Made by a program: the position numbers and the translations under genes. From a virus (taxonomy: Duplodnaviria; Caudoviricetes), in IMG/VR virus record IMGVR_UViG_3300002171_000008, positions 272-64,271 of that record: a DNA stretch of 64,000 bases. One strand, given 5' to 3'. A model generated the notes under the pieces. The model had not been told where the DNA came from. It saw only the letters and a program-made list of their open reading frames with translations, and did not search any database. Of this stretch, positions 3,487 through 47,582 are shown piece after piece (the stretch's first letter is position 1; every line of letters begins with the position of its first letter).

Positions 3487-3795
3487 GTGGTTAATATGAT
3501 AGAGCCCACTTCCAGATTATTGCATTCCATCGAAAAAGACAACCAGACCCCCGAGCTACGGACCCTCATCTTGCAAAAAGAGATTGCTCAGGTGGGCTAT
3601 AGGTTGGTCAGATGCCATAGGACGCCACAGGACGCGGCCATATATATGGCTGATATCGGGCTTGAAATCGGTCACGCAATGGTACAGCTCGAAATGCTGG
3701 CATTGGATCTCGGATTGGCGCCGGAAGACTGCAAGCAATTGGGATTAGCAACTACCTGGCAACGTTTCAAGGAGTTTTGGCCAAATGATGATTAA
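3487..3795 (+). CDS. Hypothetical helical protein, possibly degenerate MazG-like
   Basis: EIGHAMVQLEMLALDLGL resembles the MazG ExxD helix; AGGTGG SD. Confidence 0.5.
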   Translation: MVNMIEPTSRLLHSIEKDNQTPELRTLILQKEIAQVGYRLVRCHRTPQDAAIYMADIGLEIGHAMVQLEMLALDLGLAPEDCKQLGLATTWQRFKEFWPNDD

Positions 3796-4183
3796 TTATG
3801 GCGGTTGTGTCCCCCTATCATGCATCGACTATCCAGGCTTCGCCGCAATGACAATATTTTTACGAGGTTGTCATGTGCACTGCCCCGGCTGTCACAACAA
3901 ACATCTGTGGGAAGGCAGCGATATGCGGGATGAGAGCGAAATTTTCCAAATGATAGACTCGGCAGGTGACATGATAAGTGCGGTCGTCATCAGTGGCGGA
4001 GAGCCACTTGAGCAGCCGGATGCAATCAGGTCCATTTCACAGTATGCTCATGGAAAGGGCTTGCTTGTCGGTCTGCATACCAGTGGGCGCGGTGATCTGG
4101 CAGATGTGATCGAGTGCGCCGATATGATCCTATTATCGCGACCGGAACGGCAACCCTGGAATGCGGGGGAACCTACATGCTAA
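3785..4183 (+). CDS. nrdG: Radical-SAM NrdG-like (anaerobic RNR activase-like) protein, short
   Basis: IFLRGCHVHCPGCHN (CxxxCxxC), VVISGGEP, N-terminal GG.VPLS.IDYPG. Confidence 0.75.
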   Translation: MMINYGGCVPLSCIDYPGFAAMTIFLRGCHVHCPGCHNKHLWEGSDMRDESEIFQMIDSAGDMISAVVISGGEPLEQPDAIRSISQYAHGKGLLVGLHTSGRGDLADVIECADMILLSRPERQPWNAGEPTC

Positions 4184-4258: not shown

Positions 4259-4540
4259 ATGAATAGAGATGAGTTTCGCCGCACAATAGCGGCGGCTGGG
4301 TTATACGATCATATAGAAGAAATTGAGAATTGTATCGTTGGCATGACAGAAACGCGTTTTGCACCCGACCAAATCGGAGAACTCCGCGAAGCTGCGATAC
4401 AATATCTGTGCGTTTGCACCGATTACAAAAAGCTTCGGGGCTTCTTGGTTGAATGCGACAACCTGAATAAATCTTATTGCCTGTCGTGGGATGAATCGGT
4501 CGCGATTGTGATTAGGATTGTAGCGGGGTGGGCCACATGA
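4259..4540 (+). CDS. Hypothetical protein
   Basis: ORF track, GAGGTG SD. Confidence 0.6.
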   Translation: MNRDEFRRTIAAAGLYDHIEEIENCIVGMTETRFAPDQIGELREAAIQYLCVCTDYKKLRGFLVECDNLNKSYCLSWDESVAIVIRIVAGWAT

Positions 4541-4776
4541 ATGCCACCTCCTCAATTGGCTGGTATCTTCTGGAGCACAAGATAGATCCGGCCATCTTAT
4601 CCGGCTTTCCAAAACGGCTGTCCGAGCTACCTCCTCACCTGGTCACGAGGTTGTCTGCCAATGGCATGATCCGGAAGCATGAGCGGGTTCGGGATAGGAA
4701 TTGCTATAGGTGGTTGTGGGCGGCCGGGCCGAGGTTGCCGGGATTGTTGTGCTGGATGGGTAAGCGAAAACGTTAA
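4537..4776 (+). CDS. Small winged-helix-like protein (paralogous to 40956-41402)
   Basis: SELP..L..LS.N..I......W pattern shared with the 40956 ORF; ATGA overlap. Confidence 0.5.
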   Translation: MNATSSIGWYLLEHKIDPAILSGFPKRLSELPPHLVTRLSANGMIRKHERVRDRNCYRWLWAAGPRLPGLLCWMGKRKR

Positions 4777-4777
4777 C

Positions 4778-4783
4778 TTTTTT
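4778..4783 (+). terminator. Archaeal-type T-tract terminator
   Basis: TTTTTT directly after stop codon 4776. Confidence 0.45.
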
Positions 4784-4807
4784 CTGAATAGTAAGCGATT
4801 GTGCTTA

Positions 4808-4825
4808 CGTAAAAGCTTAAATAGT
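4808..4825 (+). promoter_or_regulatory. BRE-TATA promoter driving the pentamer array cassette
   Basis: cgtAAAAGC-TTAAATAGT; expected TSS ~4845-4850 coincides with the array start. Confidence 0.65.
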
Positions 4826-4846
4826 AATAGATGCTACTATACATTA

Positions 4847-5254
4847 GATGAGGTGCGTCTAGTCGCGTTGAGTCTAGGTGGCCTTGTTGCAGCGGGGCAG
4901 TTGCGGTTAGTCAAGTCCGGTCCTGTTATGTAGGGTCGACGCATGGCAGTTCCGTTGGGTCAGGGCAAGTCGGGTCAAGGCGGTGTATGGCTAGGCAGTT
5001 GAGGTTCGGCACGTCGTGTCTTGTTACGTATTGGCAAGGCAGTTTCGGTAAGTCGTGGCTAGGTAGGCACGGCAGCCGAGTTAGGTCGGGTCGAGTTATG
5101 TCCTGGTAGGGCGCGGCAGTTCTGTCATGTCCAGTCCTGGATAGGTGTGTCATGGAAGGCAGTTAGGTCAGGTCTTGTCGCGTCCTGCTCAGGCATCACG
5201 AGTCGCGGCAGTCGTGTTCAGTCATGTTGTGTTGAGTTAGGCATGGCAAGGCAG
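4847..5254 (+). ncRNA. Putative precursor of multiple guide-like RNAs (VIPR-like)
   Basis: Non-coding periodic array between a promoter and a RAMP-like gene; RNA function is inferred. Confidence 0.65.
4852..5254 (+). repeat. Array of 9 units made of GKY-NN pentamers separated by GGCA
   Basis: GGCAG at 4896, 4945, 4994, 5038, 5071, 5115, 5158, 5207, 5250; 54 of 62 full pentamers in units 2-9 start GTY or GGY. Confidence 0.92.
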
Positions 5255-5273
5255 TCTATAGGAGAGATAACCA

Positions 5274-5903
5274 ATGGTTACAAAAGCAAAGAAAACTGAG
5301 GTCCCTTCGGGGCCTATAACTTTGAAAAGAATAGAACTAAAGACATTGGAAATACCCATCATTGGTATTAGCGAACTCATAGTTCACCAATGGTCCGAGA
5401 AGGCCAAAAGGCAAATGCTAGAGAAGCAAATGGCTCCCGGCATCAAAAGTAAACGCGAAGCCAAAGACCCCATAGCAGACTATGAAAGCACAAAATATAA
5501 GATGGCAGACGGCTCAGATGGATTCCCGTCAGTGGCCTTCAAGCAGGCGATGGTTGATGCTCTGAGATTCTACGAGGGAGTTACTATGGTCATGGGCAAG
5601 ATGGCATTTTTCGTAGAGGGCGATCTAATAAAGATCGAAGGCGAACCCCGGATGAGGGAAGATATGGTAAGGCTGGAAACTGGAGTTGCAGATATCAGGC
5701 ACCGGGCCGGTTATCCCAACTGGTCTGCGATGCTCACCATAACCTACAATCCTGAACTACTCACGGCGGAATCTGTATTGGCCCTGGTAGATGCGGCGGG
5801 CCGTATGGTGGGCGTGGGCGAATGGCGGCCATCTAGTAAGAAGAGGACGGGGCCTTATGGAAGGTTCCAGGTTGATGATAGCAGGTCGGTGGGGCGAACA
5901 TGA
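5274..5903 (+). CDS. Stand-alone Cas7/RAMP-like RNA-binding protein (Vipr-like candidate)
   Basis: LEIPIIGISELIVH (beta1), GFPSVAFKQAM (cf. IPGSSLKG), DIRHRAGYPNW, Gly-rich GVGEWRP...GPYGRFQV; GGAG SD at 5261. Confidence 0.75.
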   Translation: MVTKAKKTEVPSGPITLKRIELKTLEIPIIGISELIVHQWSEKAKRQMLEKQMAPGIKSKREAKDPIADYESTKYKMADGSDGFPSVAFKQAMVDALRFYEGVTMVMGKMAFFVEGDLIKIEGEPRMREDMVRLETGVADIRHRAGYPNWSAMLTITYNPELLTAESVLALVDAAGRMVGVGEWRPSSKKRTGPYGRFQVDDSRSVGRT

Positions 5904-6412
5904 AGAAAACATATGCCTGGAAACGCAGCATGTCACTGAATGCCGAAGTAGCAGGCACGATATTTGAGCGGATAACAAAGGAGCGGGGAAAACTGATTCC
6001 AGCTTACCTGGTAGAAGAAGCTAGACCAGATCAGTCGCCTTTGCATAATCTTTTTGAATGGGATGACACAATTGCCGCCCAACTGCATCGGGAAGAGCAG
6101 GCCAGATCAATAATCAGATGTCATGTGGTTCTGTTGTGCCCGGATGAGACCAAAAAAGAAGACGTGCCCATCCAGGTCAATGCCTCAAATTCTACCAGGT
6201 CTTTCGTGAATATCCGGCAACCAAACGGCGAAAAGAATTATGTCGCTATCACGGTCGTGATGGAAGACGACGCGATGAGGGAGCAATACATCAGAAGAGC
6301 CTATCAGGAACTTAACGATTGGGCAATCAGATACAAATCGATCACGGCATTTGCTGAAATCATTGGCATGATAAAGAAAACCAATCTTAATAAGATTTTG
6401 GCGGTGAAGTGA
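5900..6412 (+). CDS. Conserved viral partner protein (SPLH..FEWDD..AA...R..QAR..IR family)
   Basis: Family motif recognised; ATGA translational coupling to the RAMP-like gene. Confidence 0.75.
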   Translation: MKKTYAWKRSMSLNAEVAGTIFERITKERGKLIPAYLVEEARPDQSPLHNLFEWDDTIAAQLHREEQARSIIRCHVVLLCPDETKKEDVPIQVNASNSTRSFVNIRQPNGEKNYVAITVVMEDDAMREQYIRRAYQELNDWAIRYKSITAFAEIIGMIKKTNLNKILAVK

Positions 6413-6416
6413 TCAC

Positions 6417-6428
6417 TTTTCTATTTTT
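6417..6428 (+). terminator. T-tract terminator closing the cassette
   Basis: TTTTCTATTTTT after stop 6412. Confidence 0.5.
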
Positions 6429-6456
6429 GGTAAGTATATTTGCTAACCATACATAC

Positions 6457-6470
6457 GAAGCTATAAATAG
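6457..6470 (+). promoter_or_regulatory. BRE-TATA promoter
   Basis: GAAGC-TATAAATAG upstream of 6492. Confidence 0.5.
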
Positions 6471-6491
6471 AATGAGATACATCTGTCACAT

Positions 6492-6776
6492 GTGCACCCT
6501 TACCGACCGCGAGGACGTTTAGCGCATGAAGGCCGCTCAAGCCGGGTAGGTCAAGCCTGGACGCAAAACAAAGTTTGGGTTTTCAATAACGATTTTGGTG
6601 TAGCAAAAAAGCTCCCACTTGGTCTGTTCGAATGTCCTAAATGTGGTTTTGTAGTCGAGATGGACAAGAGAGGGTTTGCATTTTGCCCGGACTGTGGCGC
6701 GATTTTCAATGAGAACATAGCTCCACAAAAGGAAACTAAACGGAATATTCATGCAATCATGAGATCTGTAGCATAG
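6492..6776 (+). CDS. Zn-ribbon protein
   Basis: CPKCG...CPDCG; true start may be downstream. Confidence 0.55.
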   Translation: MHPYRPRGRLAHEGRSSRVGQAWTQNKVWVFNNDFGVAKKLPLGLFECPKCGFVVEMDKRGFAFCPDCGAIFNENIAPQKETKRNIHAIMRSVA

Positions 6777-7413
6777 GGCGGGGGCCTGATCCCCTCGGAA
6801 TGGACTACCCATTCATGGTATGCTAACAGCATCGAGGTTCATATGGAAGAAGACACTTATGCCCCATCCACCAAACCGCTACTTGTCGCGGGCCGCCTAT
6901 CTCATCCCGATTTTGAACCAAGCAAGATTAAGCTGCCCAACCTGTTAGAAATTTGCGGGATGCAAAGGAATAAATAGGTTGGCTGTATAGGTTACTTGTC
7001 TTTATCCAAGACCATCGGCCGGTGTTCATTGGCCCAACTTTGGACACCGGCCCTCATAGTCTCATGTAGACACTCCATAGGTAGCATATCGCTACCTATA
7101 TTATTGTCATCGCGAGCGCCAACTCGCTTTCGACTCCAGGGGAAACATCGGAGATGCATGAAATAGGGCATCCTGCATATCGCGAGTAATCGCATGCGAA
7201 GTACCCTGGCTATCCTTGTTATCCAAGGTCGATAACAGTCCCTTCGTCGCCTGCCGCCGGGCGGCAAAACCAATACGGCAGCATCCTCGTTTTTATGCCG
7301 AAATTCACAAAAGCTAAACAGGGGTTGTGCAAATCACCATGACTGGATCACGCACGACCCATGCGATTCTTGGGCCTGGATATGCCTTGAAACTATCCAT
7401 CGCCGAGCCACCC

Positions 7414-46754: not shown

Positions 46755-47582
46755 TTATACAAAATGGTCTAGCCTGGTAGGCATTTCCGCTATCCGTTTC
46801 CTGGCTATTTCGCAGTATTTCGCTTCCTTCTCGATCCCTATAAAATGCCTTCCAGTGTTCCGGGCCGCTATGGCCGTTGTGCCTGAGCCGATGCAGTTAT
46901 CCAAGATCAGATCGCCTTCGTTTGTGTAAGTCTTGATGAGATATTCAAAGAGAGCTACAGGCTTTTGAGTGGGATGAGAATTTTTATTATCCACATTAGG
47001 AAACATCAAAACCGATTGAGGGTAATTGGTTGCTTCTTGGATGAAATCTTTCTTTCTGGATGGTCGCATTCCATAAAGTTCTGAAGCCTTCTTATCACGG
47101 TTTGGCCTATGTGTCATTTTGCCAAACGGTATAAGTCCTTGTGGAAAGTAATTCATTCTATTATCGGTGCATGATGGATGATTGATAGATCCTTGTGAAA
47201 AGACCAATACGTTTTCATGTGCTTTGAGAGGCGCGTTTTTGGCATGAAATAAACCGGATGGTCTGGTCTTGGTCCATATCCATTCGTACTTAAACATCTC
47301 GATATTTCCCATAATCAAGATGGTAGTGAACGGTTGACTTGCGGTTAATACTATGCTTCCAGTTGATCTAATTAGCCTTTTATATTCATCCCAAAGAGGT
47401 TTAAGAGGGATAACAGCATCCCATTTGCATTCTGTTGTACCATAAGGCAAATCACATAAAATCATATCTATACTTTTATCAGGTATAGACGGCATGATTT
47501 CTAAGCAATCGCCTTTTATTATGGTGTCGATCATAACATCTTCTCCGATATAAAGAATAAAATAATTAAAAATAATACCCAA
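46755..47582 (-). CDS. Beta-class DNA adenine methyltransferase
   Basis: CDLPYG, HPTQKP, LDNCIGSGTT. Confidence 0.9.
   Translation of the reverse strand: MGIIFNYFILYIGEDVMIDTIIKGDCLEIMPSIPDKSIDMILCDLPYGTTECKWDAVIPLKPLWDEYKRLIRSTGSIVLTASQPFTTILIMGNIEMFKYEWIWTKTRPSGLFHAKNAPLKAHENVLVFSQGSINHPSCTDNRMNYFPQGLIPFGKMTHRPNRDKKASELYGMRPSRKKDFIQEATNYPQSVLMFPNVDNKNSHPTQKPVALFEYLIKTYTNEGDLILDNCIGSGTTAIAARNTGRHFIGIEKEAKYCEIARKRIAEMPTRLDHFV

Follow-up and report, generated by a model that had tools for sequence, protein, structure and literature searches.

The tailed virus of IMG/VR record IMGVR_UViG_3300002171_000008 (Duplodnaviria; Caudoviricetes) encodes a 209-aa protein downstream of an array of short G/T-rich repeats, which raises the question of what this protein is and whether it works together with the repeats. 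The record is complete (64,271 bp, with direct terminal repeats), and the stretch analyzed here, referred to hereafter as the window, is 64,000 nt long and covers nearly all of it. A sequence-only reading of the window had taken the product of positions 5274-5903 for a stand-alone Cas7/RAMP-like protein outside any CRISPR-Cas locus, and had proposed a minimal, possibly ancestral-type effector that polymerizes on RNA from the upstream G-K-Y-N-N units.

A phage and archaeal-virus system named VIPR (Viral Interference Programmable Repeat) was described in three 2026 preprints (bioRxiv 10.64898/2026.04.26.720920, 10.64898/2026.04.26.720927 and 2026.10.15.759431). It combines a RAMP protein of about 20 kD (Vipr) with an accessory vap gene and with vrRNAs in which GGY and NN alternate as pentamers (10.64898/2026.04.26.720920). 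The NN dinucleotides of the vrRNA pair with double-stranded DNA, skipping every third base, and binding represses transcription of competing mobile elements (2026 VIPR preprints). We are confident that the ORF at 5274-5903 is the Vipr of a complete VIPR locus in a tailed virus, probably of the methanogen Methanothrix. Those features of VIPR that can be computed were found here: Vipr homology, a RAMP fold with the contact residues, a pentamer array, a vap gene and one-base-skip matches to foreign elements. The sequence-only reading had arrived at the published mechanism from the letters alone; the 'possibly ancestral' status of Vipr is a claim of the VIPR preprint authors. The system itself is already published, and the locus adds a well-supported further example.

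A RAMP-fold protein homologous to SUSP1 Vipr

The vipr gene runs on the plus strand from the ATG at 5274 to the TGA ending at 5903, with AGGAG 10 nt 5' of the start codon. An exhaustive search matched 3,479 cluster representatives at E ≤ 0.001, so the ORF is not a chance one. Among PHROGs the protein belongs to phrog_4652 (function unknown; E 1.8e-30), and it had no match in the Pfam, NCBIfam and PADLOC models, Cas models included. By tblastn the gene was detected in 33 phage records, 27 of Mycobacterium phages, 5 of Gordonia phages and 1 of a cyanophage, and in all of them it is annotated as hypothetical.

When the single sequence was searched against PDB sequences, one match was returned, 36pp, 'SUSP1 Vipr protein' (E 1.7e-4). 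With a profile built from 86 relatives the same entry was matched at E 9.6e-13, and hhalign of the family against SUSP1 Vipr gave 98.5% probability (E 3.4e-15). The similarity lies mainly in the C-terminal third. In SUSP1 Vipr, residues R138, D177, W178 and R179 hold the GGY bases (10.64898/2026.04.26.720927); they align with R144, E183, W184 and R185 here, and among the relatives at least 90% have R144 and all have R185. The equivalents of SUSP1 H17 and K33 fall outside the aligned part, and H38, at the end of strand beta-1, is a plausible counterpart of H17 by inspection only. The present protein and that of the Type II VIPR of Escherichia phage SUSP1 (PDB 36pp) are both about 200 aa long, with a thumb arginine and a G-loop of the form G-V-G-(D/E)-W-R-P.

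The AlphaFold2 model, built with 86 relatives, has a mean pLDDT of 94.8 and a pTM of 0.88. It contains strand beta-1 (residues 23-31), a helix after GFPSVAFK (86-99), a thumb hairpin that includes R144 (126-147), a further strand (151-158) and helix (165-179), and the G-loop GVGEWRP (176-186). All RAMP motifs quoted by the sequence-only reading were present in the ORF and could be placed on these elements. Structural re-alignment of residues 20-209 with Csm3/Cas7 chains gave Z 12.2 and an rmsd of 3.3 Å over 151 residues; the best 50 structural matches were all Cas7-family RAMPs, and the best solved Foldseek matches were Csm3 and type VII Cas7 (E 6e-7, TM about 0.5). The searches thus returned the Cas7/RAMP fold that had been proposed, and not an unrelated one.

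In CRISPR-Cas, a backbone of Cas7 subunits lines the guide RNA. Vipr shares with Csm3/Cas7 of type III and type VII CRISPR-Cas an RRM core, a thumb hairpin and a Gly-rich loop (about 150 residues), but identity is only 11-18%. Vipr is reported to line its guide RNA as Cas7 does (10.64898/2026.04.26.720927), yet the guide period is 5 nt for VIPR and 6 nt for Cas7, and the reported VIPR target is double-stranded DNA. The closeness of the fold to Csm3 could suggest a stray Cas7 from a virus-borne CRISPR-Cas system, with the upstream repeats being unrelated. We regard this as extremely improbable: Tandem Repeats Finder detected no CRISPR-like repeat array in the window at a score of at least 60, the screen with Pfam, NCBIfam and PADLOC models, which covered vipr and the adjacent accessory gene, gave no Cas profile match for either, among proteins of solved structure the nearest in sequence is Vipr and not Cas7, and a pentamer array accompanies vipr across distant phages. 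Unlike Csm3/Cas7, the protein lies among viral genes and has neither a CRISPR array nor partner Cas proteins. The locus is not a member of CRISPR-Cas; only the fold is common to both, and the placement outside any CRISPR-Cas locus made by the sequence-only reading holds within the scope of these screens of the window and the gene pair.

SUSP1 Vipr forms a helical filament with one protomer per pentamer, in which GGY is hidden and NN is presented (10.64898/2026.04.26.720927). In a predicted complex of three copies of the present Vipr the association score was 0.56, compared to 0.00 for the best of three controls; in the benchmark, 20 of 30 proteins solved as pairs of the same chain and 1 of 23 proteins solved as single chains attained this score. 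Contact agreement among runs was at least 82% and partner pLDDT at least 81. In the model the interface is head to tail and the middle copy engages both surfaces, which would make a chain. Cas7 and Vipr filaments are already among the solved structures, so the pass may reflect these known structures, or likeness to them, and not be independent evidence. The homology, the head-to-tail model and the guide matches described below agree, by analogy with SUSP1 Vipr, with the proposal of a minimal effector polymerizing on the upstream GKY-NN RNA.

The guide array and its leader

The vrRNA array occupies positions 4852-5254 on the plus strand and is made of nine guides (g0-g8), each of 5-9 G-K-Y-N-N pentamers, with a 4-nt GGCA junction between one guide and the next. 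Start positions of the GGCAG motifs are 4896, 4945, 4994, 5038, 5071, 5115, 5158, 5207 and 5250. The consensus GKYNN was fitted by 53 of the 62 full array units. G stands at position 1 in 59 units (95%); at position 2 there are 41 units with T (66%) and 17 with G (27%), and at position 3 there are 35 with C and 23 with T (Y, 93%), while the NN pairs use 15 of the 16 possible dinucleotides. In a search of 128 kb on both strands, 8 of the 9 (GKYNN)x4-or-longer runs fell in the array, with 5-8 units each; the sole run elsewhere was of the minimal length, 4 units. The published criterion for a VIPR array is intergenic tandem pentamers of at least 4 units, with GGY 'or a related consensus' alternating with hypervariable NN.

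Each 4-nt GGCA junction shifts the pentamer phase by one. The period-5 Fourier power of the array is only modest because every junction moves the phase, and the array is nearly invisible to Tandem Repeats Finder. One legend of the VIPR preprints describes 'staggered' vrRNA arrays, in which adjacent vrRNAs overlap by 1 nt, the end of one being the start of the next (10.64898/2026.04.26.720920, fig. S18); as far as that legend describes them, the GGCA|G junctions of the window, with their shift by one, fit such arrays. A minus-strand ORF at 4926-5153 (75 aa, with repeated LPC/DPT motifs) was rejected as a gene and is a by-product of the pentamer repeat.

In both SUSP1 and the window the NN of the pentamer guides is hypervariable and vipr and vap form a two-gene operon of a virus, but the arrays differ in several respects. 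Where SUSP1 has a strict GGY scaffold, that of the window is G-K-Y, with U at position 2 in two thirds of the units. The guides have 5-9 units compared to 9-16 in SUSP1, and nine of them are packed into about 400 nt with 4-nt GGCA junctions, whereas SUSP1 has a conserved 3' tail with a pseudoknot. No structured 3' tail resembling the SUSP1 pseudoknot was evident in the array, and an Rfam scan of 4400-7400 found no family, hammerhead included. The Type II (SUSP1-like) features that are absent are strict GGY, guides of 9-16 units, the pseudoknot tail and vap1. In SUSP1 a change of the scaffold from GGY to GAY abolished silencing (2026 VIPR preprints). The residues that hold G2 are conserved here although position 2 of the scaffold is mostly U.

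A conserved leader precedes the array at 4775-4851 (plus strand) and is nearly invariant in four loci with differing upstream flanks and downstream guides; these four close loci share a 75-nt leader and have mostly different guide repertoires. It contains a perfect palindrome, GTAAGC-N6-GCTTAC, at 4791-4808, conserved in all four close leaders and located just upstream of a TATA-like element; a regulator of the array could bind the palindrome as its operator. The element at 4811-4823, AAAAG followed by CTTAAATA, resembles an archaeal BRE/TATA box when compared with the archaeal consensus, and would place the start of the transcript at about 4845-4850. A scan for sigma-70 promoters found nothing in the leader.

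Genes adjoining vipr

A 170-aa accessory gene follows at 5900-6412 (plus strand). Its start overlaps the vipr stop (ATGA) and the two are translationally coupled. In those relatives that were examined the gene adjoins vipr, and 33 phage records contain it, divided among hosts just as the vipr records are. The product matches phrog_15946; it had no match in Pfam, NCBIfam or PADLOC, nor among PDB sequences. Its model (pLDDT 93) has no clear solved relative: Foldseek returned nothing below E 0.6, and a wide structural search gave Z of 5-6 only, with weak winged-helix-like matches (Z about 5, residues 10-117). The C terminus is modeled as a helical hairpin. The protein is not detectably related to SUSP1 vap1 (0.2% probability), and we treat the gene as vap.

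Downstream of it, at 6492-6776, lies an ORF for a 94-aa zinc-ribbon protein (CPKC...CPDC). A similar Cys-pair protein comes after vap in three related loci (L003, L004 and L005), and it could be a third component or simple synteny. Two genes upstream, at 3785-4183, is a small radical-SAM protein (Fer4_12/Radical_SAM; QueE-like or anaerobic RNR activase-like by PHROG). Terminase, portal and capsid genes lie downstream, from about 7.3 kb.

Relatives of the locus and the probable host

The same layout was found in IMG/VR contigs with Vipr proteins 97% and 92% identical to that of the window. A contig of a Methanothrix sp. MAG carries a vipr start that is 90% identical, preceded by the same leader, and the host of the virus is probably Methanothrix. 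The host is thus probably archaeal, unlike that of SUSP1. In every relative examined the array lies beside vipr and the NN content differs. The short guide g4 is an instructive case: its NN string (TC AA GT TA AG) is kept in three arrays while K and Y letters have changed, as expected from selection on NN alone. In the locus with the 92% identical Vipr (L003:2347-3000), the first guides are common to the window and the arrays then diverge; the array there includes an uninterrupted 17-unit guide. In two contigs at 54% identity the junctions are GCCA and the scaffold is G-(T/C)-C.

Mycobacteriophages (e.g. Brocalys gp45-gp46), Gordonia phages (ODay gp19-gp20) and Cyanophage Cy-LDV1 encode Vipr proteins 47-48% identical to that of the window, followed by the same accessory family and accompanied by GGCA-punctuated pentamer arrays; in these records both genes are called hypothetical. 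Their arrays have the canonical GGC scaffold, unlike the G-K-Y of the window, as in the GGC-NN arrays with GGCA junctions at L006:2600-2850 (Mycobacterium phage Brocalys) and L007:3620-3780 (Gordonia phage ODay). The ODay array separates vipr from vap, whereas that of the window is wholly upstream. The annotated start of Brocalys gp45 (locus position 2833) extends into the array.

These relatives bear on whether the G/T-rich repeats might be a DNA element, such as iterons, a packaging site or a replication origin, with the RAMP-fold protein binding this DNA or its transcript for regulation of the virus itself or for packaging. The small and large terminase genes follow about 1.4 kb downstream of the locus and the leader holds a conserved palindrome, as such a reading would have it. 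The gene pair, however, sits in the immunity/early region of mycobacteriophages and among tail genes in ODay; the NN content turns over between relatives whose Vipr is 92-97% identical, unlike a cis site; and the guides match other viruses and not the window itself. We therefore hold a DNA element to be very improbable, and the repeats are read as guides in what follows.

Guides match genes of a rival virus family

Targets were searched for with each scaffold replaced by one wildcard, following the VIPR preprint. Guides g0, g4 (10 informative bases), g6 and g8 are below the length needed for this search. No self-target was found in the window (best, 13/18).

The NN letters of guide g2 (4945-4993, plus strand) encode P-G-R/S-N/K-G-K/N-G-I/M-Y and match the Walker A motif of D5-like primase-helicases. 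A 17/18 match in codon phase lies in a Methanothrix mobile element (G059:C48:5413-5438) and is the only single-mismatch g2 match in 59 genomes of the genus of the Methanothrix MAG. The matched gene encodes a 634-aa D5_N/DUF5906 primase-helicase, whose Walker A codons (LGRNGKGIY) have NN on codon positions 1 and 2; other ORFs of that contig resemble, by eye, a recombinase and a MazF-type toxin. In a homologue of the primase-helicase (63-69% identical), g2 matches at the same place with different wobble bases. Units 2-9 of g2 matched 16/16 at the Walker A motif in four IMG/VR contigs. The window virus has no DUF5906 gene.

For guide g7 (5158-5206, plus strand) the predicted target is the major capsid gene of the target family, at the N-terminal motif PSIWSAKLL. 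It matches 17/18 on the antisense strand, in codon phase, on a 15-kb contig that had been fetched through g2 (L092:6487-6513), and does likewise on seven further contigs. Units 1-8 of g7 retrieved 18 IMG/VR contigs, 8 of them at the capsid motif. The product of this gene belongs to the major head proteins (phrog_267, E 5e-61) and is not similar to the capsid protein of the window. Guide g5 (5071-5114, plus strand) is predicted to target a 153-aa putative winged-helix regulator of the same virus family, with a weak DUF7343 winged-helix match. It matches in codon phase 16/16 at L138:6649-6672, 15/16 in L134 and 14/16 in L135, which are three of the eight contigs fetched through the g7 capsid motif.

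Guides g2, g5 and g7 converge on one rival virus family, in its primase-helicase, regulator and capsid genes. Its members are small head-tailed viruses that encode a portal, a scaffold, a major head protein and an AEP primase. By our own arithmetic the chance per guide-contig pair is about 2e-5 for g7 on L092 and about 7e-6 for the g5 cross-hits; corrected for the pairs tested, these values become about 4e-3 and 8e-4, respectively. A control scan at skips of 0, 2 and 3 bases gave 2, 0 and 0 matches. Unit 1 of g2 and the final unit of g7 are mismatched in all of their targets, and guide units with degenerate scaffolds still match. As in SUSP1, the matches skip one base, the skipped base is at the wobble position and the genes belong to competing elements. 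A close relative of the window virus was recovered from the metagenome that also yielded several of the target contigs.

Guide g7 also matches a conserved Lhr-type helicase gene, 16/18 and in codon phase, in about 18 of the 59 Methanothrix genomes (e.g. G023:C1:3091817-3091842), as might be expected if the locus mainly silenced host genes in a takeover of the host and was not directed at rival viruses. Two mismatches in 18 are nevertheless at chance level, with about 0.1 match expected per genome by our own arithmetic, and in a conserved gene such as lhr they represent one event repeated across genomes. The viral capsid gene is also the better fit to g7 (17/18), and two further guides match the same virus family as g7. 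A role mainly in host takeover is improbable in our judgment, and we retain rival viruses as the predicted targets.

Six of the nine guides had no convincing target. Guide g1 had 2 matches in the Methanothrix genus versus 5 for its reversed control, and its 9 exact IMG/VR matches were all in frame in unrelated proteins (e.g. a serine integrase), which probably reflects codon composition. In-frame placement alone is therefore not evidence, being partly compositional. Guide g3 gave 19 matches with no pattern.

Other candidate matches were set aside. Full-length, nine-unit g2 and g7 had 1 and 3 exact matches in IMG/VR, none of which was in codon phase, and these are read as chance. Guide g2 also has two-mismatch matches, not in codon phase, in a large gene for a Methanothrix surface protein; they amount to one or two events repeated across genomes, which is at chance level.

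Two of the contigs matched by g2 have pentamer arrays of their own at the contig end (L091:9-108 and L096:14389-14613). The second of these also contains a stretch 83% identical to window positions 46803-46976. VIPR-bearing relatives may target each other.

A model for the locus and its implications

RNA binding, filament formation, DNA binding and silencing are attributed to this Vipr by analogy with the SUSP1 work. A promoter in the leader would transcribe the array, vipr and vap together, and short vrRNAs with their ends at the GGCA junctions would be released from the array RNA. Each pentamer would be occupied by one Vipr protomer in a head-to-tail row, with the thumb and the Gly-rich loop holding the G-K-Y scaffold and NN left exposed. 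The filament could then pair with double-stranded DNA read as NN-x-NN-x, one base being skipped, and the bound filament may block transcription of the target gene. The guides would be aimed at rival viruses and mobile elements, through a capsid gene, a regulator and a replicative primase-helicase. With NN on codon positions 1 and 2, synonymous mutations would not free a target.

It is possible, though we think it rather unlikely, that this clade is a mechanistically distinct VIPR subtype, in which U, G or C is tolerated at position 2 despite the conserved G2-contact residues, maturation is tail-less and depends on GGCA, the accessory protein has an undescribed fold and units with degenerate scaffolds pair in register.

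VIPR is months old, and experiments have been done mainly on the E. coli and Pseudomonas systems. The locus leaves the known picture of how VIPR works unchanged. It provides a natural example in a probable methanogen virus, and, since three predicted targets fall in a single rival virus family, the rule of skipping one base apparently extends to a distant clade. A name can now be given to a gene pair that mycobacteriophages and Gordonia phages widely carry unannotated, and the compact, tail-less array with its U-rich scaffold could reveal variation in scaffold recognition and guide maturation.
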